Below are positions 8,355 to 49,097 of a DNA stretch of 49,097 nt, one piece after another. The position numbers and the translations under genes were made by a program. This stretch comes from a bacterium (lineage in GTDB: Bacteria; UBP15; UBA6099; JAJRTR01), in contig JAJRTR010000103.1 of the NCBI GenBank assembly GCA_024278215.1, forward strand, positions 1-49,097. Reading direction: 5' to 3'. Position 1 is the first letter of the stretch, and each line of letters begins with the position of its first letter. The notes beneath the pieces were generated by a model, which worked only from the letters and a program-made list of their open reading frames with translations, had not been told where the DNA came from and did no database searches.

Positions 8355-9425
8355 ATGAAAAACAAGACGATACTTATACTCGCAGTAGCTTTCTTCGCAA
8401 TGCTCGCGGCATACTACATTATGGAAAAACCGGAAACCGACATATACAAAAAGTCGGAAGCGCAGGTGAAACCGCTGTTCGGCAATATCAACGCCGACGA
8501 CATTGCTAAAATCACAATCGCCGCGAAAAACAACAATACCACACTTGTCAAATCCGACAAAGGTTGGGTTGTGAAAGAGGAAAACAACTTCCCGGCAAAT
8601 AAAGATTTGATCGACAAGATCGTCAAGTCGATACCCGCGATGACCGACGAGGAAATCGCATCCGACAACCCCGAAAACGCGGCGCTCTATAAAGTTGATA
8701 AAGATAACGCTGTGCATGTGCAGGTGTTCAACAGCAAAGATAAGGTTATAGCAGATTACTATGTCGGCAAAAACGGCACGGGGAGAACCAGCTACGTGCG
8801 GGCGGAAGGCTCGGACGTCGTGACGCTCCAGAAAGATGTTTTCAGATATCAATACGACAAATCGCCAAAAGCATGGCGGAACAGATCGATAGTGAAATTC
8901 GACGCGGAAAAGGTACAAAGAATAGAGATCACGCGCCCCGATGCCGCTCCGGACACTCCACTCGCCGAAGCCGCGGGCGGTGCCACACAGACTGTCGTCA
9001 TAAGGAAAAACGGAGAAGGCACATGGGAAATGACCGAGCCTGAATTCAGGACAGGCAAAAAAGCCGCGATACAGAACCTTGTACGCACATTCTCGAACCT
9101 CACAGCAAGTGATGTGCCCCCTCAGGATGCCGAAAACACGGGACTCGACGAGCCTTACATCACCGGCAAAGTTGTGCTCGAAGGCGGCACAGAACATGAA
9201 ATACTGATAGGCGCGAAAAAGGAAGGCACGAACAATTATTTCGCACGCAGCGCGGATTCCGACCTGCTGTATCTCATCGCAAAATATCAGGTGGACATAT
9301 TCAGGAAAAAACTCGACGATCTTGGCAACGTGCCTGAACAGAAACCGGTAACCGATTCCGAATCGGGGACCGGCTCCGGGGAACCCCCGGTTGTCCCGGA
9401 TGCCGCACCCCAGGCTCAAGACTAA
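8355..9425 (+). CDS. DUF4340 domain protein
   Basis: N-terminal TM, two repeated DUF4340-like units, WRNRSIVKF motif; usual fourth gene of gldAFG-like operons. Confidence 0.8.
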   Translation: MKNKTILILAVAFFAMLAAYYIMEKPETDIYKKSEAQVKPLFGNINADDIAKITIAAKNNNTTLVKSDKGWVVKEENNFPANKDLIDKIVKSIPAMTDEEIASDNPENAALYKVDKDNAVHVQVFNSKDKVIADYYVGKNGTGRTSYVRAEGSDVVTLQKDVFRYQYDKSPKAWRNRSIVKFDAEKVQRIEITRPDAAPDTPLAEAAGGATQTVVIRKNGEGTWEMTEPEFRTGKKAAIQNLVRTFSNLTASDVPPQDAENTGLDEPYITGKVVLEGGTEHEILIGAKKEGTNNYFARSADSDLLYLIAKYQVDIFRKKLDDLGNVPEQKPVTDSESGTGSGEPPVVPDAAPQAQD

Positions 9426-9676: not shown

Positions 9677-10855
9677 TCAGTACTTCTCGCGCTCGAAGAG
9701 GCCCGCCGCGCCCATGCCGCCGCCTATGCACATCGAGACAATGCCCCACTGCTTGTCGTAGTCTTTCAGTTCATAGAGCAACTGGTTGGTGAGCTTGGCA
9801 CCCGTGCAGCCCAGCGGGTGTCCGAGTGCGACGGCACCGCCGTGCACGTTTACACGGTCCATGTGTTTGTCATAGAGACCGAGTTCGCGAAGACAATAGC
9901 GTGCCTGTGAGGCGAACGCTTCGTTGACTTCGTAGTAGTCGATGTCCGTGATGTCTTTGCTTGTAGCTTTGAGCAGTTTGCGGATCGAGTAGAGAGGTCC
10001 TACGCCCATTTCGTCGGGGTGCGTACCTATGGTCGAGTACCAGCGGAAAGTCGCCATGGGCTTGCATCCAAGCTCTTTCGCCTTTTCCTTGCTCATCACG
10101 AGGACAGCGGCCGCGCCATCGTTCATGGGCGACGAATTGCCTGCTGTGACTGATCCGCCTTTTTTAAAGACGGTGCGAAGTTTAGCGAGACCTTCGACAG
10201 TTGTGTTGTAACGCGGGGCTTCGTCTGTGTCGAACACGACTTCTTTCCAGCCCGCGCCGTCTGCCACACGCGCATTCACGGGAACGATCTGTTCCTTGAA
10301 CTTACCGCCTTCGATGGCGGCTTTGGCCTTCATCTGACTATCGTAAGCGAATTCGTCCTGCATCTCACGTGTGATCCCGTAGCGTGAGGCTACGTTCTCG
10401 GCAGTGATGCCCATGGGGCAGTATGCCGCCGGGAAATCCGTGGCCAGTTTCAGATTGAGCTCCGGGATGTATCCGCCCATGGGAACCATGGTCATGGATT
10501 CGGTGCCGCCCGCGAGGACAACATCGTTCCAGCCCGCCATGACTCTTTCGGCGGCTATCGCTATCGACTCCAGACCGGATGAGCAGAATCTGTTGACGGT
10601 CAGGGCCGCCACTTCAATCGGCATATCCGCGGCGAATGTCGCGATACGCGCTATATTCATACCGAGCGATGCTTCGGGCATCGCGCAGCCGAGGATAACG
10701 TCTTCGACATCCGATTTTTTTATCTCGGCCCTGTCAATGACTTCATTTATGACAATTGCGGCCAGATCGTCGGCTCGCATATTGGCAAGCGTGCCGCGCT
10801 TGGCGCGTCCGATGGCTGTTCGGGCCGCGGCTACTATGACTGCTTCTTTCGCCAT
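9677..10855 (-). CDS. fadA: Acetyl-CoA C-acyltransferase (3-ketoacyl-CoA thiolase)
   Basis: NRFCSSG (catalytic Cys), NEAFA, GHPLGCTG, CIGGGMG motifs; GGAGG RBS. Confidence 0.93.
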   Translation of the reverse strand: MAKEAVIVAAARTAIGRAKRGTLANMRADDLAAIVINEVIDRAEIKKSDVEDVILGCAMPEASLGMNIARIATFAADMPIEVAALTVNRFCSSGLESIAIAAERVMAGWNDVVLAGGTESMTMVPMGGYIPELNLKLATDFPAAYCPMGITAENVASRYGITREMQDEFAYDSQMKAKAAIEGGKFKEQIVPVNARVADGAGWKEVVFDTDEAPRYNTTVEGLAKLRTVFKKGGSVTAGNSSPMNDGAAAVLVMSKEKAKELGCKPMATFRWYSTIGTHPDEMGVGPLYSIRKLLKATSKDITDIDYYEVNEAFASQARYCLRELGLYDKHMDRVNVHGGAVALGHPLGCTGAKLTNQLLYELKDYDKQWGIVSMCIGGGMGAAGLFEREKY

Positions 10856-28584: not shown

Positions 28585-28761
28585 GACAATTATTTTCGAC
28601 GGTTTTTACTCGTAAACATTAGTTTTTCATATATAATAATCTATCTGAGAACGGCTCACAGGTGCCGCAGGCACCCTGTGGCGTGTCCGCCGGGCGGCGT
28701 GTTTGCCGTTTGGCGCATCTGCGCGCAACATGAGTTGATAAAGACGACCAGGAGAAAATAT

Positions 28762-38508: not shown

Positions 38509-39963
38509 TTATCCTTTTTTTCGTTTCTTCTTCTTTTTAAGTTTTTCGATGTTTTTCCCAGGAGACTTTTTCTTCTCATTCCTCTTTTTTCCGGGTTGTA
38601 ATATTGAATCTTCTTTTTTCCGGGGGCGCGGTCCGGCAAATTTCAGTTCGAGTGTGACACCACTCAGATTGAATATTGCCCTGATCCTGTTCTCGATAAG
38701 TCTTTTGTAATTCCGGTCGAACAATTCAGGATCGTTCGCGCGGATCACAATACGGGGCGGGTTCGTACTGTCATGAATAACATCGAGGATTTCACCGACC
38801 CTGCCTTTCCTGGCTGCCGGTGAGTACAGAGTCCGTGTATCGTAGATAACATTTTTCAGCAGTTCCAGAGGCAGCAATTCGTTCTGTCTACGGTGAACAT
38901 CGACAATATTGTCCAGCAGTGCATCCATGCCGGACCTCTCCAGCGCGGAAACAAAAAGTATCGGTTTGCTTTTCAGAAACGGCGCGTTGAGAAAAAAATT
39001 ATCGAGAAAATAGTCGTAATCGGGATTATCGATGAGGTCCATTTTATTTACAGCAATGAGAAGCCCCTTCTTATTTGTGATAACAGCGTCGGCGATACGT
39101 TTCTCCCCCTCGAGCAGGCCGTCTTCCGCGTCGACAACAAGCACCGCGAGGTCTGAATCCTCGATGGACCTTTTCGCCCTTGTATAGCCATAATACTCCA
39201 TATTATCCATTTTAGTTTTTTTGCGTTTCACGCCGGCGGTGTCGACGATAATGAAGCGGCGGCCATCGTGAGTAAAGTCTGCGTCCACCATATCGCGAGT
39301 GGTGCCGGGCACGGAAGAAACAACGCATCGTTCCTGTCCGAGAATAGCGTTGGTGATGGATGATTTGCCGACATTCGGGCGACCGACAATGCAGAAACGG
39401 ATCGGTGGTTCCGTAAAGTATTCGGGCTCGAACTCGGGCAGTATTGTCGCGAGCCGTTCTGTGAGTTCGTGGATGTTGCTTCCATGAAGGGCAGAAATCA
39501 TGATGGGATCACCGAGCCCGAGCCCCGCCAGTTCGAGCGCTGTATTCTCGTCGCGGCGACCGTCCGCCTTGTTTGCGACCATGACAACAGGCTTACCGCT
39601 TCGCCTGAGCTTTTCGGCGACAAAAATATCTTCGTGCAGCATTCCGGCCTGCGCGTCCGCCACAAAGACGACTATCGACGCGCTGTTGATGGAAAGCATG
39701 ATCTGTTTTTCGACACCTGCCTCGATCTCGTCGCGGCCCATGTCATAGGTCAGCCCGCCCGTGTCCACAATCTGACAGGGCATCCCCTCGATCCGGCAAC
39801 GCGCGAATATTCTGTCGCGTGTCACTCCCGGCATATCGTCGACAATCGCCACACGCCGTTTCAGCAAGCGATTAAAAAGTGTGGATTTCCCCACATTCGG
39901 CCTGCCGACGATTGTTATCAACGGTATTGCGCTTTTCGTTTCTGTTTGTTTCTGTTTTCCCAT
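38509..39963 (-). CDS. der: Ribosome biogenesis GTPase Der (EngA) with Lys-rich tail
   Basis: Two GRPNVGKS G1 motifs, GVTRD/GTTRD, DTGG/DTAG, NKAD/NKMD; start placed at ATG 39963. Confidence 0.94.
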   Translation of the reverse strand: MGKQKQTETKSAIPLITIVGRPNVGKSTLFNRLLKRRVAIVDDMPGVTRDRIFARCRIEGMPCQIVDTGGLTYDMGRDEIEAGVEKQIMLSINSASIVVFVADAQAGMLHEDIFVAEKLRRSGKPVVMVANKADGRRDENTALELAGLGLGDPIMISALHGSNIHELTERLATILPEFEPEYFTEPPIRFCIVGRPNVGKSSITNAILGQERCVVSSVPGTTRDMVDADFTHDGRRFIIVDTAGVKRKKTKMDNMEYYGYTRAKRSIEDSDLAVLVVDAEDGLLEGEKRIADAVITNKKGLLIAVNKMDLIDNPDYDYFLDNFFLNAPFLKSKPILFVSALERSGMDALLDNIVDVHRRQNELLPLELLKNVIYDTRTLYSPAARKGRVGEILDVIHDSTNPPRIVIRANDPELFDRNYKRLIENRIRAIFNLSGVTLELKFAGPRPRKKEDSILQPGKKRNEKKKSPGKNIEKLKKKKKRKKG

Positions 39964-40077
39964 CGTTTCAGCTCCGTTTGTGACATTTCGCACGCATCGC
40001 ACGCCGCCGCCTATAAATTTTATAGTACGGGGTCTATAATTAAAACATATACAGCCTTTATTGAAGAAAACCGTGAT

Positions 40078-40410
40078 ATGAAATTCCTGGAAAACATCGA
40101 AAATGTCGAATTTATCGAAGAGGAGATCACCCATTTCGTCAGCGGGCCTTATGGCTATTACGCTATCATCAGAAGCGGAATGCGGATCGACATTACCGCT
40201 GTTTTTACGATCCAGCCGCCAATAGATGATTTCGATACTTACTACTCGTTCCTGTTTGTGGAATCACTGCATGATTTTTTCCTTTTCAGGCAGCTTGTTT
40301 GTGAAAACAAACCAGGTGCGTGGGAAGTATATCTGAGACTGGAAGTTGCGGAACGGAACGGTTTTTTCGCACAGGCACAGGATTACTTCAACCGGATAAA
40401 AGCCGATTAA
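40078..40410 (+). CDS. Hypothetical protein (110 aa)
   Basis: 3' part of ORF 39469..40410 that does not overlap der; globular-looking composition; no recognised motif. Confidence 0.5.
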   Translation: MKFLENIENVEFIEEEITHFVSGPYGYYAIIRSGMRIDITAVFTIQPPIDDFDTYYSFLFVESLHDFFLFRQLVCENKPGAWEVYLRLEVAERNGFFAQAQDYFNRIKAD

Positions 40411-40416
40411 GTTGTT

Positions 40417-40520
40417 TAGCCCCAATACCGTTTACTTAAGAGGGTATGGGTATCAATATTCGCAATAAATACAGGCTTTTTTGCGTATCATTGTTGTTAA
40501 AGCAAACGGTATTGGGTTTA
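40417..40520. mobile_element. MITE-like family C (~104 bp)
   Basis: Left end TAGCCCCAATACCGTTTACTTAAG; reverse complement of right end TAAACCCAATACCGTTTGCTTTAA; TA at both ends. Confidence 0.7.
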
Positions 40521-40718
40521 GCCCGGCACAAAGAGAAATCCGGAAAATCGCGATAACACCTATTCTACTGCGTTGCGGCGGCGATTCGGGATCGGTCACA
40601 TACCGCATTTTGAGCAAGAGGCCGGCTGGCCGGCGGCTCCCTCACCACTCACTTGCCGCGCCTTGTATTACAGGCATTCTCCCGATTTTTAGCCCGCATT
40701 GGTGAAATATGCGCGTTA
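40519..40718 (-). mobile_element. MITE family B, copy 3 (reverse orientation)
   Basis: Reverse complement of 37465-37669, with TA-bounded ends. Confidence 0.85.
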
Positions 40719-40771
40719 GTATCAATACCGGTCACTTAAGGCGCTAAAAATCATAATTTTGCAATTGGCTC
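40719..40771 (+). repeat. Solo family C end followed by solo family A right TIR
   Basis: GTATCAATACCGGTCACTTAAGG, then AATCATAATTTTGCAATTGGCTC. Confidence 0.7.
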
Positions 40772-40903
40772 TTCTGTTCTAATCACCCATTAATGTCGCA
40801 CACAGGTGATATACTTATTTGAGATGTCAGCAATTAACGATAAATGTCGGAGATTCTTTTGCAGGGACACTCTGTGAAGAAAATTTATATCTGGAGGAAG
40901 AAA

Positions 40904-43900
40904 ATGGCAAAGAAGGATCAGAAACAGACAACTACAAGAGCTTACACGATGCGGCTGAAAGGCATGGATCCGGAAGACAGTAGCTGGCGCGATATGCTGT
41001 GGGAAAGCCATGTCGCTATCAATCGTGGCGCTCGCGCATTCGGGGACTGGCTTCTCACGTTCCGTGGTGGTATCTGCCACACTCTTGCTGATACGCCGGT
41101 GCCTGTGAAAGGAAAGCCGGACAGGGAACCAACGCGCGAGGAGAAAAAAGACAAACGTATTCTCCTGGCTCTTTCCTGGCTTTCTGTGGAGTCGGAAGCT
41201 GGAGCTCCACAGAAATATCTCGTATCACACGAAGGAAAAGGCAAACGTCGAAGGTGGCAGACAGTCGAAGCGCTCGAAGATATTCTGCACACGCGCGGAC
41301 TGCCGCCGGAAGCTATTCGGTCATGGCTGGCGGACTGCGCCCCCGCCGTCTCTTCAGCAATCCGCGACGATGCTGTCTGGGTGAACCGAAGCAAAGCCTT
41401 TGACGACGCTGTGAAAATGATCGGCGATTCTCTAACAAGAGACGAAATCTGGGACCTTCTCGACAGGTTCTTTAATAGCAAAACCCAGTACATCACTCCA
41501 ATTGAAAAACTGTCCGATAAAGATGATGATGCGCCCACGGAAAAAATCGAGAGCAAGGATCTCGTTCAAAAAGCACTGGGATGGATAAGTAACAGATTCG
41601 GGAAAGCCAAAGGTGCTGATTTCGAGTCTATGGCTTATGCGTTTGATGTAATTGCAGATTGGGCGAAGTCGGAGAATGCCGGGATCGATACAAAAGAGGG
41701 ATTATCAAACCTCATCGCGAAATTGAAAGATAAGGGATTGGTTGTATCTCAAGACAACCCGGCAGGGATCATGAACCTGGTGAGCAGGCCAGGACCACCC
41801 AACAAAATGCTGCTGACTATAAAATCCATATCAAAAAAAACGTGTATTGATGACGAAACATTAAACATCCTCAAAGGAGCATCCACAGACGCAGAGGAAT
41901 GCAGAAAAAAGATAGGTCGAAAAGGGCCGAAACCATGGTCGGATGGCATCCTTGCAGACATAGAATCGCAATGCGGTTTTACATATCGAAAACCTGGAGG
42001 TACTGCGGCAAACGCCGAGTTCTCCGTCATGCTCGATCATGCCGCAAGGCGCGTATCCGGAAATCAGTCGTGGATCCGGCTTGCCGAGGCCAATCGGCGA
42101 TCTTTCGACAATGAAGCCGATAAGATTTCACTCGTACTCGACGACGCGAAAACATGGCTCGACGCATATTGCGAGAGAAGAGCCGGCACTTCGGGAGCTA
42201 TCGATGCATACGTAATAAACAAACGCGCTATCGAGGGGTGGGGGCATGTAGTTCAAGCATGGTCACAACCTGATTGCAAAACTGTAGAAGACCGTATCAA
42301 GGCGGCCCGCAATCTGCAGAGCGATCAGGATATCGAGAAATTCGGAGACATCCAACTCTTTGAAGCACTCGCCGATGACGATGCAGTTTGTGTCTGGCTG
42401 AAAGACGGCAAACCATCGCCTGACAATCTCAAAAACTATGTCGCAGCCGCCATCGCCGTGCGCAATAAACTCCGTTTCAAAGTTCCTGCATACAGGCACC
42501 CCGATCCTCTCCTGCATCCTGTCTTCATCGACTATGGCAACTCACGCCTCTTCATAAAGTTCGCCGCTCATAAACCCAAAAAGGGACAGGACATCCGTTC
42601 CCTTGTCATGACCATAATCCGCAATGGCGCGCCTGAAACTGTTTCCCTGTTGTGGCAATCGAAAAAACTCATGGCCGATTTCGACCTGCGAAACAAACTC
42701 CTTGAGTCCAAAAACGAATCATCCGAGCCGGCAAATGTCTCACGCGCCGACAGGCTCGGCCTCGCCGCATCGGCCGCCGACCCCGACGGTGAGATACATA
42801 TAATGAATGTATTCGATGAGAAACACTGGAACGGTCGCCTCCAGGCGCCCCGCGCGCAGCTCGAAGCCCTCGACAGAGCGCTCAGGAAGAACGGAGGCCA
42901 GTGGGATGAGCGAACCCTGCGCATGAAAAACAGCATACAATGGTTCGTCACTTTCTCCCCCAAGCTACAGCCCGCCGGACCATGGATAGACTTCGCGAAA
43001 CATAATGGATTAAACCCTAACAGTAAGTACTACCCACCTGCTACCCTCAACAAGGGCCGCAAAGGCATGGCCCGCATCCTGCTCTCGCGGCTGCCCGGAT
43101 TGCGCATTTTATCTGTAGACCTGGGCCATCGCATCGCCGCTTCCTGTGCTGTCTGGGAAACTCTTTCAAGTGAGCAAATGCAGGCCGCCTGCTCCGCCGC
43201 CGGTCACGATGCACCCGGATCAGACGACATCTTCATTCATCTTTCTTCGCAGAATCCTGAAGGCCAAACCCGAAATGTTATTTACAGGCGAATCGGCGCA
43301 GACCTCCTCCCCGACGGTTCTCCGCACCCGGCACCGTGGGCCAGGCTCGACAGACAGTTTCCTGTCAAGCTCCAGGGAGAAGCCGAAAAACCACGAAAAC
43401 CCGGTCCGCTGGAATACGAAGCCGTTGCCGCCCTCGAACAGAAAATCGGACTCGTCGAAACTGAACCTATAGAAAAACGATTCCATCACGTCGACAAACT
43501 CATGTCCCACGCGGTGCGCATCGGAAGACTCGGGCTCCGAAGGCACACCACCGCTGCCCGCATCGCCTTCAACCTGACAACTGATAAGAAAGCGCTTCCC
43601 GGAGGCTCAGCAGAGAAACTTTCTGACGACGACCGGGTCAAACTCCTCACTGACTCTCTTTTCGAGTGGCATCTATCAGCTTCATCCACCAGGTGGAAAT
43701 CACCAGTTGCGTCCGCCTTGTGGAAAGAACACATACAGCCGCTGACCTCCGGCATCGAACTCCCGGACCCCGATTCACAGGACACCGAGATGTCCGCACC
43801 AGCGAGAAAGAAGAAGAACGACACGCTTAAAGCCACACTTAAACCCGCTGCTGAAAAACTCGCCGGCGACAGAGCTCTTTGTATTAAGCTGCACAAACTA

Positions 43901-45142
43901 TGGGCCGACCTCTGGGCACGCGAAGATAGCGATTGGAAAGTGAGCCTGCGCACCCTGCGAGACTGGTTGCTGCCGTCCGGCAAATCAACCGCCTCGGGCG
44001 CCATCCGCTGCGTCGGCGGTCTCTCTGTCGAGCGCATTACCACTCTGAAATCTCTTTACCAGCTGCAGAAGGCATTCTTCACACGGCTAACTCCCGAAGG
44101 AAGGCAGGTAGATGAATCTTCCGGCCAGCCGCTCACCGCAGGCGAACACTTCGGAAAACGCACTCTCGACGCTATAGAAAAACTCAGGGAAAACCGCGTC
44201 AAGCAGACAGCTTCACGCATTACAGAAGCCGCGCTCGGAATAGGAATCGAATCGAAAAGACCTATCGAAAAAGATTCAAAAAGATTCAAAGGAAAGATGC
44301 CAGCCCGGCCTTCTCGCCAGGTCTTTAAACCCTGTCATGCCGTCATCGTCGAAAATCTCCGGCACTACCGCCCGGAAGAAGTACGCACAAGACGCGAGAA
44401 CAGGCAACTGATGTCGTGGGCCTCCTCGAAAATATTCGACCACCTGGCCAATGCCTGTGAACTCAACGGTTTGCTGCTTCGTGAAGTGTCCGCCGCTTAC
44501 ACATCGAGACAGGACTCACGCACAGGAGCGCCCGGCAGCAGATGCAAAGATGTGCCGGTGAAGGATTTTATTGGAGGAAAATCTTTCTGGAAAAACGAAA
44601 TCGCACGCTCAGACAAGAAATTCAAGAAAGGGACAGCCGACTCCCGTGACGACCTGCTGCTCGATCTGCGAAACTTCTGGGAAGACAAACCGCCCGAAGT
44701 CATCGAAAAAGCCCGCCCGATCCGCATCATCTACAGGGGCGGCGAACTCTTCGTTTCCGCCGATGCTCTCTCGCCTCTCTCCAACGGTATCCAGGCCGAC
44801 ATAAACGCCGCCGCCAATATCGGCCTCAAAGCGTTGCTCGATCCCGACTGGGCCGGTGCATGGTGGTATGTGCCGTGCAACACAAAGACGCACAAACCCC
44901 TCGCCAGGCGCGCTGGAGGCTCGACGGCAATCGACACTTCGCAGTCTCTTAAGGAAGATGACACCAGTGAAAAAAGCGGTAAGAAGAAAAACACAAAGAA
45001 AACCAGGGATGTTGTGAATTTATGGCGCGACCCTTCAGGCGGTCCCGTCCATGATTCTCAATGGAGCCCCACAACCGAATACTGGCAGGATGTCCAGAAA
45101 AGAGTTGTCAGTGTGCTGAGAAAATATAATAAACTGGAGTAA
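40904..45142 (+). CDS. cas12b: Type V-B CRISPR effector Cas12b (C2c1), ~1412 aa
   Basis: N-terminal RAYTMRL...LWESH.A.NRG...FGDWLLT; RuvC-I LSVDLGHR (D at 43118), RuvC-II VIVENL (E at 44351), YTSRQDSRTGAPG, RuvC-III ADINAAANIG (D at 44798); next to cas4-1, cas2 and array; GGAGG RBS favours ATG 40904 over 40844. Confidence 0.95.
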   Translation: MAKKDQKQTTTRAYTMRLKGMDPEDSSWRDMLWESHVAINRGARAFGDWLLTFRGGICHTLADTPVPVKGKPDREPTREEKKDKRILLALSWLSVESEAGAPQKYLVSHEGKGKRRRWQTVEALEDILHTRGLPPEAIRSWLADCAPAVSSAIRDDAVWVNRSKAFDDAVKMIGDSLTRDEIWDLLDRFFNSKTQYITPIEKLSDKDDDAPTEKIESKDLVQKALGWISNRFGKAKGADFESMAYAFDVIADWAKSENAGIDTKEGLSNLIAKLKDKGLVVSQDNPAGIMNLVSRPGPPNKMLLTIKSISKKTCIDDETLNILKGASTDAEECRKKIGRKGPKPWSDGILADIESQCGFTYRKPGGTAANAEFSVMLDHAARRVSGNQSWIRLAEANRRSFDNEADKISLVLDDAKTWLDAYCERRAGTSGAIDAYVINKRAIEGWGHVVQAWSQPDCKTVEDRIKAARNLQSDQDIEKFGDIQLFEALADDDAVCVWLKDGKPSPDNLKNYVAAAIAVRNKLRFKVPAYRHPDPLLHPVFIDYGNSRLFIKFAAHKPKKGQDIRSLVMTIIRNGAPETVSLLWQSKKLMADFDLRNKLLESKNESSEPANVSRADRLGLAASAADPDGEIHIMNVFDEKHWNGRLQAPRAQLEALDRALRKNGGQWDERTLRMKNSIQWFVTFSPKLQPAGPWIDFAKHNGLNPNSKYYPPATLNKGRKGMARILLSRLPGLRILSVDLGHRIAASCAVWETLSSEQMQAACSAAGHDAPGSDDIFIHLSSQNPEGQTRNVIYRRIGADLLPDGSPHPAPWARLDRQFPVKLQGEAEKPRKPGPLEYEAVAALEQKIGLVETEPIEKRFHHVDKLMSHAVRIGRLGLRRHTTAARIAFNLTTDKKALPGGSAEKLSDDDRVKLLTDSLFEWHLSASSTRWKSPVASALWKEHIQPLTSGIELPDPDSQDTEMSAPARKKKNDTLKATLKPAAEKLAGDRALCIKLHKLWADLWAREDSDWKVSLRTLRDWLLPSGKSTASGAIRCVGGLSVERITTLKSLYQLQKAFFTRLTPEGRQVDESSGQPLTAGEHFGKRTLDAIEKLRENRVKQTASRITEAALGIGIESKRPIEKDSKRFKGKMPARPSRQVFKPCHAVIVENLRHYRPEEVRTRRENRQLMSWASSKIFDHLANACELNGLLLREVSAAYTSRQDSRTGAPGSRCKDVPVKDFIGGKSFWKNEIARSDKKFKKGTADSRDDLLLDLRNFWEDKPPEVIEKARPIRIIYRGGELFVSADALSPLSNGIQADINAAANIGLKALLDPDWAGAWWYVPCNTKTHKPLARRAGGSTAIDTSQSLKEDDTSEKSGKKKNTKKTRDVVNLWRDPSGGPVHDSQWSPTTEYWQDVQKRVVSVLRKYNKLE

Positions 45143-45145
45143 CCC

Positions 45146-46879
45146 GTGACAGACGAATATCTCTGGCCCGCACGAAATGTTGCTGAATACGCGTATTGCC
45201 CGCGACTGTTCTATCTTATGGAAGTCGAAGGCATACACGTGCCGAGCTCGGACACTGAAGAAGGCAATATCGTGCATTCCCGTGTCGACAAGCCCGGCTC
45301 AAAACCGCAGACACCGGACGCTGCACAAGAAGCCGGCGCGCACGTTTCGCAAAAGCCGGAATCCGTGCGCAGCCTTACGCTGACGGACAAAAAACTGCAA
45401 CTGACCGCCACACTCGATCTGGCAGAGCTGAAAGGCGTGGAAGCCGTCCCCGTCGAATATCGAAGAGGGCGTCCACGCCATGCTGTCATAGCGCCCCCTC
45501 CGGACGACCCCGACGACGCGCAACAGAAACCCCTCACACGGCCCGAACCATGGCCCACCGACCGGGTCCAGATCGGACTCCAGTCCATTCTCCTCGAAAA
45601 CAACGGCTACATTGTCCCCAGAGCCGTTCTCTACTACGCGGCAGAAAAACGCAGACTTGAAATCACCATCGACGCAGCTATAAAAGCCGAAGCCATCGAC
45701 ACGCTCGAAGCGGCAAAAGATTGTGCCGCCCACCAGAGGCCGCTCCCTCTGGTTAATGACCCCAGGTGCCCTCGTTGTTCCCTCCAGCCTGTCTGCCTGC
45801 CCGACGAAATAAATTACCAGCGTTTCACGGACAGAAAACCGGAACTCACACCAAGAAAAATATGGCCGCCCCGGGACGACGGCATCCATGTAGTAGCGCA
45901 GAAAGACGGCATACGAATAGGCGTCAGAGGAATGTCGCTATACGTCACAGACCGCAACGGCAAAAAAACAAGTGAAGTGCCCGTCACAAATATCGAAAGC
46001 TTGTCTATCATCGGCAAAGTGCAATTAACCACACAGGCCCTCCATGTACTCGCCGAGCGTAATATTCCCATTGCTTTCCTCTCGGGGGCGGGCCGAATGA
46101 TCGCCATGATCGACCCGCTCGGCCCGGTAAGCGCTTCCGTCAGAGCAGCGCAATTCAAGGGTTTCAACGATCCCGTGAAATGCCTGGAAATCACAAAGCG
46201 CCTGGTAGCCGCAAAGATAAGCAATCAGCGCACCATGCTGCTAAGAAACTTCCCGGACACACCAAAAAAATGCGCCCGCGAACTGAAAACACTCATCAGC
46301 AATACCCTGGATGCCGCGACCATCGATTCCATCAGAGGCCTTGAAGGAAATGCCGCGGCCATATATTTCGAACAATTCCCGAACATGATAAAATGCGACG
46401 CCGCTTCAGAATTCGCCGCACACGGCAGGCAGCGCCGCCCTCCGCCCGACCCGATAAACTCCTGCCTCTCCATGGCCTACACAATGCTTGCTCATGAATG
46501 CACCTCCGCCGCTCGCATCGCCGGGCTCGAACCATCTCTGGGCGCCTATCACGTATACCGCCCGGGCAGACCCGCCCTGGCTCTCGATCTCATGGAGCCC
46601 TTCCGCCCTCTTGTCGCCGACTCCGTCGCTCTCACCGCATTCAACAAAAACGAACTGCGCGACAGCCACTTCCGGCGCACCGCCGCAGGCTGCCTGCTTT
46701 CAGATGCCGGCCGCAGAGCTTTCTTCAACGCCTATGGCAGACGCCTCAACACCGACGTCACACACCCTGTGTTCGATTACAGACTCAGCTACAGACGCAT
46801 GATAATCCTTCATGCACGCATGATAGCCGCATGGCTGAGAGGAGAAATCCCCCGGCTCGAATTCCTCACTACCAGATAG
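45146..46879 (+). CDS. cas1: Cas4-Cas1 fusion
   Basis: Cas4 part: YCPRLFY, PVEYRRG, RVQIGLQ, CPRCSLQPVC (Fe-S cysteines). Cas1 part: GLEGNAA, RRPPPDP.N, GAYH, LALDLMEPFRP. Confidence 0.95.
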   Translation: MTDEYLWPARNVAEYAYCPRLFYLMEVEGIHVPSSDTEEGNIVHSRVDKPGSKPQTPDAAQEAGAHVSQKPESVRSLTLTDKKLQLTATLDLAELKGVEAVPVEYRRGRPRHAVIAPPPDDPDDAQQKPLTRPEPWPTDRVQIGLQSILLENNGYIVPRAVLYYAAEKRRLEITIDAAIKAEAIDTLEAAKDCAAHQRPLPLVNDPRCPRCSLQPVCLPDEINYQRFTDRKPELTPRKIWPPRDDGIHVVAQKDGIRIGVRGMSLYVTDRNGKKTSEVPVTNIESLSIIGKVQLTTQALHVLAERNIPIAFLSGAGRMIAMIDPLGPVSASVRAAQFKGFNDPVKCLEITKRLVAAKISNQRTMLLRNFPDTPKKCARELKTLISNTLDAATIDSIRGLEGNAAAIYFEQFPNMIKCDAASEFAAHGRQRRPPPDPINSCLSMAYTMLAHECTSAARIAGLEPSLGAYHVYRPGRPALALDLMEPFRPLVADSVALTAFNKNELRDSHFRRTAAGCLLSDAGRRAFFNAYGRRLNTDVTHPVFDYRLSYRRMIILHARMIAAWLRGEIPRLEFLTTR

Positions 46880-46893
46880 AAAGGATATTCCCG

Positions 46894-47184
46894 ATGCGCA
46901 GATGCTACATCGTATGCTACGACATCGCAGACCCAAAAAGACTCAGACTTGTCCACAGAACACTCAAAGGCTACGGCGAAAAATGGCAATACTCCGTCTT
47001 CTTCTGTGTTCTCAAAGACATAGACCGTGTCAGGCTCCAGGGCGACCTGAAAAGCATCATCAACAATGACGCGGACCAGGTCCTTATCATCGACTATGGC
47101 CCCGACGAAACAAAAGCTCGCGAAAATGTCACCACACTCGGCGCCTCACTGCCCGAACAACAAAGTTTCACACTTGTAATCTGA
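46894..47184 (+). CDS. cas2: CRISPR-associated endoribonuclease Cas2 (96 aa)
   Basis: MRRCYIVCYDIADPKRLR..., QYSVF; AAGGA RBS; 3' end of listed ORF 46498..47184. Confidence 0.95.
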   Translation: MRRCYIVCYDIADPKRLRLVHRTLKGYGEKWQYSVFFCVLKDIDRVRLQGDLKSIINNDADQVLIIDYGPDETKARENVTTLGASLPEQQSFTLVI

Positions 47185-47186
47185 AC

Positions 47187-47215
47187 TTGACAGGCAGAGC
47201 CATCGATGCTATCAT
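47187..47215 (+). promoter_or_regulatory. Sigma70 promoter for the tracrRNA
   Basis: TTGACA (47187-47192), 17-bp spacer with extended TG at 47207-47208, TATCAT (47210-47215). Confidence 0.8.
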
Positions 47216-47221
47216 ATTGCT

Positions 47222-47315
47222 AAGGTTCTACAGGAACCGGCACCTCCATGAAAGCGTCTTCCTCCTCAACGAGTTCAGCACATGGCATCGTTCAGGTCTG
47301 CGTCGCCGGGCCGGG
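47222..47315 (+). ncRNA. Putative Cas12b tracrRNA
   Basis: 5' hairpin GGTTC/GAACC; CCATG/CATGG stem enclosing GCGTC (pairs with repeat 3' GACGC); CATCGTTCAGG...CGTCGCCGG anti-repeat at 47286-47309; ends approximate. Confidence 0.8.
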
Positions 47316-47332
47316 CATCTGTCCTTTGACAA

Positions 47333-47506
47333 TATCTTTCGAGCATCCAGGTGGCATAGCTACCCCCGGACCATGCTCGAAAGATAGAATACAAGGGAAG
47401 TTTTGACCGGATTGACAAACAATTCCCCTCCCCCAAAAGGACAAGTTAATGCAAGCTCGAAAAACAGAGAAAAAACCTATATGCATAAGCCGGATTTTCG
47501 CCCGCG
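47333..47506 (+). promoter_or_regulatory. CRISPR leader with a 14-bp perfect inverted repeat
   Basis: TATCTTTCGAGCAT (47333-47346) / ATGCTCGAAAGATA (47373-47386), then an A-rich stretch up to repeat 1. Confidence 0.65.
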
Positions 47507-49097
47507 GTCACACCGGCAGACGACACCCCGAACGATGGACGCCTTCCGCTGCTGTAGTTCGTACGGCCATTGCGCGGTCACACCGGCAGACGACACCCCG
47601 AACGATGGACGCAAAACCAGCAGCACCATTTATGATAGTGCATCCGGTCACACCGGCAGACGACACCCCGAACGATGGACGCCGGTTGCTGCTGCGCTTG
47701 CTGGTGTTACACTAGCAGTCACACCGGCAGACGACACCCCGAACGATGGACGCCACGCGCAGAAATGCCGGTGCCGGGACTCGGATTCAAGTCACACCGG
47801 CAGACGACACCCCGAACGATGGACGCAAGTACCCTTCGCACTTTTTTCCGCTTCATTACTGTCACACCGGCAGACGACACCCCGAACGATGGACGCATGA
47901 AGAAGATAATTTCAGTTACGAAAAAGTTTCACGTCACACCGGCAGACGACACCCCGAACGATGGACGCGAATTGATCGTGAACGCGGCGCAGGCACTCAA
48001 TCGTCACACCGGCAGACGACACCCCGAACGATGGACGCTCTCTGGGAACACGAAAAACGGATATGTGTTTTTAGTCACACCGGCAGACGACACCCCGAAC
48101 GATGGACGCTCAACCGCATAGGATTCGGCATTTATGCACCCTGGTCACACCGGCAGACGACACCCCGAACGATGGACGCTAGACTGTTACTAACTCATCA
48201 GTGAGATAATCAAGTCACACCGGCAGACGACACCCCGAACGATGGACGCTGAAAGTCGAACACGTAGATATATCAGAAGTCTCGTCACACCGGCAGACGA
48301 CACCCCGAACGATGGACGCTAAACATGCAGAGAAATATGATAAAAGTAGATTGAGGTCACACCGGCAGACGACACCCCGAACGATGGACGCCGTTGACGA
48401 TCAGCGAAAAGAAAGCGAGTTGCGAGTCACACCGGCAGACGACACCCCGAACGATGGACGCATCTTGCTGAATCGCGAAAAGCGCGTCGCCGATCGTCAC
48501 ACCGGCAGACGACACCCCGAACGATGGACGCCCGTTATCAGTGTTCCGATTGTCGTATAAGTTCCAGTCACACCGGCAGACGACACCCCGAACGATGGAC
48601 GCATACAATCGTAAGCCGACTTGTAATCTCGCGTTAGTCACACCGGCAGACGACACCCCGAACGATGGACGCGGGAAACCTGATTCGATCGCGGCGCGCG
48701 CGCACGGTCACACCGGCAGACGACACCCCGAACGATGGACGCAATCATCGTTCTGAAGTACCGCTTCACCCATGATTGTCACACCGGCAGACGACACCCC
48801 GAACGATGGACGCTCGTCGAGATCGACTTCAACGAATTCACTATTGGTCACACCGGCAGACGACACCCCGAACGATGGACGCTTCTTATGATTAAAAAAA
48901 ATCTTACTGAAGATGATCGTCACACCGGCAGACGACACCCCGAACGATGGACGCCATCGCCATAGCGTGTCACCGTCTCTGCGCTTTACGGTCACACCGG
49001 CAGACGACACCCCGAACGATGGACGCCATCGCCATAGCGTGTCACCGTCTCTGCGCTTTACGGTCACACCGGCAGACGACACCCCGAACGATGGACG
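47507..49097 (+). CRISPR. CRISPR array: 23 repeats of GTCACACCGGCAGACGACACCCCGAACGATGGACGC (36 bp) and 22 spacers of 33-37 bp; runs off the window end
   Basis: Identical repeats start at 47507, 47577, 47647 ... 48991, 49063 (last one missing its final base); orientation inferred from leader position and tracr complementarity. Confidence 0.99.

Follow-up and report, generated by a model that had tools for sequence, protein, structure and literature searches.

Background

The window, by which we mean the whole stretch of DNA analysed here (49,097 nt, a complete contig), has at its right end a type V-B CRISPR-Cas locus on the + strand, in which 322 nt separate cas2 from the array. The question raised by this locus is whether that gap encodes the tracrRNA of the system, as a first-pass annotation had proposed, and whether its anti-repeat is divided into two parts that match an unusual repeat end. 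Comparison with related loci leads us to conclude, with high confidence, that positions 47187-47328 of the + strand represent a tracrRNA gene, and that the type V-B system it serves belongs to the long 'ChCas12b' clade. The features of the locus are listed in Table 1.

Table 1. Coordinates of the features of the type V-B locus in the window
Feature	Start	End	Strand	Description
cas12b	40844	45142	+	1432-aa ORF; NCBIfam NF033949 Cas12b, 947 bits
cas4/cas1 fusion gene	45146	46879	+	NF049935 cas4g_cas1g, 630.6 bits; Pfam Cas1, Cas4
cas2	46894	47184	+	96 aa; ATG at 46894, stop TGA 47182-47184; Pfam CRISPR_Cas2, TIGR01573
tracrRNA promoter (predicted)	47187	47215	+	-35 TTGACA 47187-47192, 17-nt spacer, -10 TATCAT 47210-47215
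Stem 1	47224	47238	+	GGUUC/GAACC, 5 bp, loop UACAG; 5/5 pairs doubly changed in relatives
Linker L2	47239	47245	+	7 nt, GGCACCU; placed by model alignment
Stem 2, 5' arm CCAUG	47246	47250	+	Pairs with 47281-47285; 5 bp here
Short anti-repeat GCGUC	47254	47258	+	Against the last 5 nt of the repeat, GACGC; pseudoknot, 'R:AR duplex 2'
Stem 3	47262	47273	+	CUC 47262-47264 / GAG 47271-47273, loop CUCAAC; 3/3 pairs covary
Stem 2, 3' arm CAUGG	47281	47285	+	
Long anti-repeat ('R:AR duplex 1')	47286	47309	+	47286-47293 perfect against repeat GAACGAUG; A47294 mismatched; 47295-47296 paired
Possible 3' end of primary transcript	47295	47328	+	Two small GC hairpins, then UUUG; weak, terminator-like
Conserved leader element	47333	47386	+	Perfect 14-bp inverted repeat around 'Box A' 47341-47379; outside the minimal tracrRNA
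CRISPR array	47507	49097	+	23 copies of a 36-nt repeat with the end GACGC; copy 23 truncated at the contig end

The cas genes and the CRISPR array

In addition to the Cas12b family model, the Pfam C2c1 RuvC-like and Nuc-II domains were matched in the cas12b ORF. The family match begins at residue 52, and the true start of the gene may lie further 3' than that of the ORF. The start of cas2 was taken from the sequence. The array runs on into contig C112, which has six further repeats at its start. Counted by its 30-nt core, the repeat is present in 28 copies in the assembly (22 in the window and six on C112), and all 28 end in GACGC. The last two spacers before the contig end (48955-48990 and 49027-49062) are identical, which may reflect a true duplication or an error of assembly where collapsed repeats end the contig.

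Only two of 13 genomes from the same phylum carry cas12b, the window's own and that of locus L163. The window protein falls within a clade of long Cas12b proteins (approximately 1400-1550 aa), among which the closest relative is 66% identical and the rest at most 50%. Related loci show two layouts. The array lies either some 400-600 nt past cas12b with no intervening adaptation genes (for instance L003, L046 and L085), or approximately 2.4 kb past it with cas4/1 and cas2 between (L010, L013 and L090). The tracrRNA and the leader blocks described below are common to both layouts. In the window, the tracrRNA stretch follows the last cas gene and precedes the array, whose strand it shares.

What the window alone can show

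Within the window, neither complementarity nor promoter score nor single-sequence fold exceeds chance. A single promoter-like site was observed, where shuffles have 0.6 ± 0.8. The 8-mer CATCGTTC at 47286-47293 is complementary to GAACGATG of the repeat, as the first-pass annotation had read it; the + strand upstream of the array has five occurrences of this 8-mer, and a spacer one more (48746), with approximately three expected. The two-part pattern of GCGTC followed by this 8-mer has two occurrences against 0.15 expected, and 2 of 100 shuffles reach two. The second occurrence (39281-39333, +) lies inside the Der GTPase gene of the opposite strand and was considered a chance match.

Duplex energy against the whole repeat was scanned in 31,624 windows over the full stretch. 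The candidate has -35.5 kcal/mol, approximately 3.7 standard deviations below the mean, and three other sites are at least as good: 10105-10158 (-41.2 kcal/mol), 8641-8700 and 28672-28725. Because these chance sites outscore the real candidate, duplex energy was rejected as a criterion for a tracrRNA. The first of the three (+ strand) lies inside the ORF 9677-10855 (-), about 30 kb from the locus, forms 30 pairs with the repeat and was likewise taken as chance.

Folded alone, 47222-47296 forms stem 1 and neither stem 2 nor stem 3, with z = 0.03 relative to shuffles, and its minimum-energy fold pairs the anti-repeat internally. A search for a continuous 13-nt anti-repeat with at most three mismatches returned no match at the tracrRNA stretch, because the anti-repeat is split. 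No Rfam family matched 40000-49097 at E up to 1. Since the sequence statistics of the window are at chance level, the case for a tracrRNA rests on comparison with relatives.

Related loci and family models

An alignment of 25 long Cas12b proteins (A1) served to gather related loci, 80 each from genomes and metagenomes. Of 162 loci, 104 yielded an array, and nearly all repeats have 36 nt and end in GACAC. An 8-mer complementary to repeat positions -13 to -6 with at most one mismatch was found 190-400 nt before repeat 1 in 77 of the 91 distinct upstream regions; that of the window is at -221. Four of the 77 placements (L109, L118, L125 and L161) were mis-anchored; alignment A2 was made without them, and the model afterwards gave their positions. 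The 71 stretches in A2 share a conserved scaffold that extends beyond the mere anti-repeat.

A covariance model with three hand-set stems (R1) was built from A2, with the window in the seed. It matched 71 of 82 sources (74 matches) and 69 of 80 sources (70 matches), almost always on the cas12b strand and downstream of the last cas gene, and many of these loci are outside the seed. Searched against the whole 4.5-Mb assembly, R1 gave one match, at the tracrRNA stretch. Because the seed of R1 included the window, a second model (R2) was built from metagenome matches only (alignment A4; loci L083-L162), with the window absent. The first-pass annotation had named a covariance model across homologous loci as a check on its reading, and in the 49-kb window R2 has a single match, at 47216-47325 (+), covering the model in full (1-112) with 60.8 bits and E = 3.9e-13; no further match was present in the window at E up to 1. 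The match ends 182 nt before repeat 1, a distance that is mostly 160-340 nt in relatives.

Weaker model matches (24.7-55.9 bits) were also found on the opposite strand upstream of cas12b in four loci: L046:6563-6675(-), L052:6507-6618(-), L061:3919-4030(-) and L160:1741-1848(-). These could be a second copy of the tracrRNA for a divergent array. In the tracrRNA region of locus L085 (11216-11338), the segment from stem 2 to stem 3, with the short anti-repeat, is duplicated in tandem.

Covariation of the stems

Across 73 distinct sequences, 96.5% of the 982 cells of stems 1-3 are standard-paired, in alignments (A3 and A4) that were fitted to the model structure, so that pair counts favour it. 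When the partner registers were slid by 1-3 columns, only 38-53% were paired. All 14 stem pairs have changed on both sides among the 73 sequences. The observed covariation was reached by none of 500 shuffles, a significance that is overstated because the relatives share descent.

The hairpin GGTTC-TACAG-GAACC and the CCATG/CATGG stem of the first-pass annotation are both present in the window, the former homologous to the covarying stem 1 and the latter to stem 2, of which all six model pairs are doubly changed among relatives. The 3-bp stem 3 was not among the features listed earlier. Its family consensus is CCC/GGG with the loop UUCAAU, from which the window differs. Comparison of the sequences thus establishes both the homology of the window stretch with this family and the covariation of its stems.

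The two anti-repeats and the repeat end

Pairing between tracrRNA and repeat was scored in 90 distinct combinations, the ninety-first (L075) having been dropped for a mis-called repeat end. Anti-repeat positions +2 to +9 pair with positions -7 to -14 of their own repeat in 91-100% of the combinations, with several pair types at most of these positions; +1 pairs in 76% and +10 in 72%. Past +10 there is a poorly paired stretch, and then a second, looser one to about +22. Over the first 10 positions, anti-repeats pair on average at 9.12 of 10 with their own repeat, versus 7.55 with the repeats of other loci. In the window, the long anti-repeat directly 3' of stem 2 faces repeat positions -6 to about -15 with nine of 10 paired, the first eight of them contiguous, and looser pairing continues past 47296 to approximately 47309. 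In a gapless register the window scores 8/8, 9/10 and 15/22 with its own repeat, in agreement with the looser pairing beyond the 8-mer that had been noticed earlier.

Regarding the short anti-repeat, the loop motif is GTGTC in 118 of the 120 distinct matches, the window and L069 being the exceptions. On the repeat side, 80 of 83 distinct repeats end in GACAC and the window in GACGC, and the other two are mis-called ends. The repeat end called unusual by the first-pass annotation is therefore really so, and it is accompanied by a matching change in the loop: GTGTC stands with GACAC in 89 of 90 combinations, and in the window GCGTC stands with GACGC, complementary at 5/5 positions as proposed. 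A sixth pair, between T47259 and the adjoining G of the repeat, had also been suggested. It found no support: in the published description of ChCas12b (PMC12204704), the equivalent U has its partner within the tracrRNA, and the equivalent G is part of the long duplex.

The other exception behaves in the same way. The match at L069:3972-4081 has the loop GTCTC (and stem 3 GUC/GAC), from which a repeat end GAGAC was predicted; the repeat L069:4306-4341 was then found to end in GAGAC, in one copy at the contig end. Both GTGTC and GACAC, the standard forms, are present in L163, the nearest genome relative with the system, so the GCGTC/GACGC state of the window is, by this comparison, derived. On the sequence evidence, a 5-bp intermolecular helix has undergone compensatory change twice independently, in the window and in L069, each time in a single lineage. 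A plausible route in the window would be a change of A to G in the repeat, tolerated as a G-U pair, and then of U to C in the tracrRNA. Since a window-free model finds the stretch, its stems covary, and both parts of the anti-repeat follow the repeat of their own locus, the reading as a tracrRNA with a bipartite anti-repeat is upheld by the comparison.

Comparison with known guide RNAs

The discovery of ChCas12b is reportedly due to Wei et al. (Sci Bull 2024). The window Cas12b is homologous to this protein over its full length (PDB 9KLN chain A, 1496 aa; 1253 bits), with 46% identity by BLASTP and 51% of aligned positions. With AacCas12b and BthCas12b it scores 66-85 bits, over approximately 150-220 residues around the RuvC region. 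By these scores the window effector falls outside the AacCas12b/BthCas12b short clade; the topology of the RNA is shared.

The guide of ChCas12b, from Candidatus Hydrogenedentes, is known from cryo-EM structures (PDB 9KLN-9KLQ; Li et al., Nucleic Acids Res 2025, PMC12204704), whose description reports the tracrRNA to be required for DNA cleavage by ChCas12b. It consists of a 75-nt tracrRNA, 16 nt of repeat and a 24-nt guide. The order of its elements is stem 1 (5 bp, loop UACAG), L2 (7 nt), stem 2 (6 bp), L3 (3 nt), R:AR duplex 2, L4, stem 3 (3 bp), L6 and R:AR duplex 1, the last predicted to have 10 bp. In 9KLN, R:AR duplex 2 is formed by GUGUC, G(-60)-C(-56), with GACAC, G(-5)-C(-1) (PMC12204704).

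The window RNA has the same order of elements. It shares with the described ChCas12b guide a 5-bp stem 1 with the loop UACAG, a 7-nt L2, a 5-nt short anti-repeat, L4 UUC, a 3-bp stem 3 whose 6-nt loop holds CAA, and a 7-nt L6 ending in GCA that is followed by the long anti-repeat. The location between the last cas gene and the array is also shared, as is the promoter. The differences are the short duplex (GCGUC:GACGC in the window, GUGUC:GACAC in ChCas12b), the length of stem 2 (5 and 6 bp, respectively), stem 3 (CUC/GAG and CCC/GGG), the inner pair of L6 (U-A and C-G), and the sequences of the long anti-repeat and the repeat. The window RNA therefore belongs to a known and structurally solved family, of which a homologous member has been visualised with its Cas12b (PMC12204704). 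The earlier view that the fold is conserved while the sequence is different does not hold against the ChCas12b guide, with which the sequence is conserved as well.

The locus of ChCas12b itself is among those gathered (L041, L111-L114). Protein P0112 (1496 aa), encoded in L114 (100% identical) and L041, has 27 of 28 named RNA-contacting residues at the numbers given in PMC12204704. The native tracrRNA of L041 fits the numbering of that description except for one base, named differently at -76. Of these 28 residues, 17 are identical in the window Cas12b and 11 differ; all four that contact R:AR duplex 2 are identical. The contacts of ChCas12b with this duplex are described as being solely through phosphates and a sugar (PMC12204704), and natural base-pair swaps in it fit such contacts with the backbone.

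In Cas12b systems the anti-repeat is reported to be at the 3' end of the tracrRNA, in two discontinuous parts (PMC6546382, PMC11246509). AacCas12b, BthCas12b and BhCas12b have a long bulged duplex and a short duplex of 5-7 bp by the guide, which makes a pseudoknot (PMC6546382, PMC11246509). Three stems and two R:AR duplexes are described for each of these and for ChCas12b, and the members of the short clade (approximately 1100 aa) differ in stem lengths, linkers and overall shape (PMC12204704). The split topology that the first-pass annotation gave for AacCas12b is thus documented for Cas12b in general; as the closest counterpart, AacCas12b gives way to ChCas12b, whose guide the window RNA resembles more. 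Likewise, the single guide suggested earlier (47222-47293, a loop and 13 nt of repeat) comes near the published ChCas12b design without reproducing it. Carried over to the window, that design would join 47224-47296 to the final 16 nt of the repeat with no loop between them (PMC12204704).

Among other effectors, the tracrRNAs of Cas12f1, Cas12g and Cas12l are said to have, as here, a pseudoknot with a short repeat:anti-repeat stem (PMC11246509), with other effectors and scaffolds than those of the window. The tracrRNA of type II (Cas9) systems is also trans-encoded, carries an anti-repeat and is needed for crRNA maturation and interference; unlike the window RNA, it has a continuous 5' anti-repeat followed by nexus and terminator hairpins, and the crRNA has the opposite polarity (PMC6546382).

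Predicted promoter and RNA ends

The promoter that had been noted right after the cas2 stop is in place. It matches 11 of 12 consensus positions, has TG ahead of the -10 box, and is the sole promoter-like site in 46800-47700 when spacers of 16-18 nt are considered. Among distinct relatives, 72 of 121 have a promoter scoring at least 9/12 that ends 4-12 nt, mostly 6-8 nt, before stem 1; in the window the -10 box is 8 nt from stem 1. Because this position relative to stem 1 matches the family, transcription would be expected to start near 47222.

Just 3' of the anti-repeat, 18 of 48 distinct loci that carry T(C)TTTGRCAA have a T-run preceded by a GC hairpin, at a distance of 0-3 nt. The version in the window is weak and ends at 47324, and the terminator scan called no intrinsic terminator after the anti-repeat in the window. 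From the arrangement in relatives and this weak counterpart, the primary transcript may end near 47325-47328, which would make it approximately 105 nt long. The TTGACA at 47326 could be taken for a promoter of the array, but no -10 box lies 16-18 nt downstream of it, either in the window or in the relatives listed.

The leader downstream of the tracrRNA

The leaders of long-clade type V-B loci contain conserved blocks in a fixed register to repeat 1. In the window, whose leader spans 47326-47506, they lie at 47324-47386 and 47455-47459, with counterparts in about 88 related loci. The T(C)TTTGRCAA block lies directly 3' of the tracrRNA. It is followed by the leader element of Table 1, which has a fold z of -4.7. 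Box A (39 nt, GAGYRYG..GGTGGTG..GGGG..RYRCTCG) was found in 88 of 91 loci. In 81 of the 83 distinct sequences listed, a distance of 124-141 nt separates its end from repeat 1. The exceptions are L059 at 230 nt, where the stretch has Ns, and L014 at 47 nt, where the regular expression matched elsewhere. Further blocks are GCTCGC at -53, AA at -35/-34, and TTGCGAGnGCGGCG at -14 to -1, the last being absent in the window and in L163.

As evidence for an RNA helix, Box A offers one position pair that changes from G:C to A:T, the rest being invariant or unpaired, and the conserved blocks between -70 and -1 show no convincing covarying pairs. These blocks were not found described in the parts of the literature on type V-B leaders that were searched. 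Possibly they are integration signals or a structured leader.

Alternative explanations

The same promoter could start one long RNA comprising tracrRNA, leader and array, from which the tracrRNA is released by processing. We regard this as unlikely but worth keeping in mind; it is a variant of the tracrRNA explanation and does not deny it. In its favour are the lack of a second sigma-70-like site in 46800-47700, the conserved TTGACA at 47326 with no -10 box at the proper distance, and the absence of a strong terminator after the anti-repeat in the window. Set against these are the terminator-like hairpins and T-runs at the same place in relatives, the limitation of the promoter scan to spacers of 16-18 nt, and the AT-rich leader at 47387-47506, which could hide a weaker promoter. 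More conjectural still, and decidedly improbable as we see it, is a pair of separate proposals: that 47187 is the only promoter of the RNA module, with the Box A hairpin (47333-47386) serving in processing or insulation, and that the GCGUC tracrRNA rejects GACAC crRNAs, as it could because an A-C mismatch results. The reverse combination, a GUGUC tracrRNA with a GACGC crRNA, would be tolerated as a G-U wobble.

Explanations that do away with a tracrRNA on this strand fare far worse. If only the window were considered, the chance-level complementarity and the unremarkable fold would suit a leader sequence without any RNA function, whose complementarity is either accidental or left over from a decayed, inverted repeat. 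Such an origin is very improbable given that 73 distinct sequences of many phyla show both conservation and covariation in the scaffold outside the repeat-like parts (stems 1-3 and linkers), that the window-free model matches at E 4e-13, and that a homologous RNA is functional and was visualised with its Cas12b (PMC12204704). The program-made ORF list includes a 66-aa ORF with a TTG start at 47187-47387, but relatives vary by paired compensatory changes and indels of 1-2 nt rather than codon-wise, and the ORF crosses the promoter and the leader hairpin; a small protein has hardly any probability at all. An RNA of the minus strand, or an array transcribed from its far end, we judge extremely improbable: both models match the window on the + strand only; the cas genes, the promoter and the AT-rich leader are all oriented +; and the crRNA of Cas12b is reported to have the repeat 5' of the spacer (PMC6546382), with the anti-repeats fitting the 3' end of the + strand repeat.

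Proposed mechanism and meaning

In the preferred explanation, that of a tracrRNA gene between cas2 and the array, a sigma-70-type promoter would start the RNA near 47222, and the transcript would fold into stems 1, 2 and 3. The long anti-repeat would pair with the repeat body of the pre-crRNA and GCGUC in the loop of stem 2 with the spacer-side repeat end GACGC, making a pseudoknot. The long duplex would be processed, probably by a host RNase, and the dual RNA would be bound by Cas12b and guide DNA cleavage, an activity that is predicted here.

The tracrRNA of the locus is thereby fixed for annotation, and the family model (R1/R2) finds the RNA in approximately 140 of 162 related loci, a family that Rfam does not have. 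For tool building, the locus supplies a candidate Cas12b that shares about 46% identity with ChCas12b, and its guide scaffold can be read straight from the sequence. The tracrRNA itself, the compensatory changes and the family model are useful, and will not surprise a specialist. Compensatory changes arose naturally in this system's 5-bp short duplex and in that of L069, which shows that what selection preserves is its pairing and not the identity of its bases. This agrees with the backbone and sugar contacts described for ChCas12b (PMC12204704) and with the reprogramming of the short duplex of BhCas12b and BthCas12b reported at the bench (PMC11246509).
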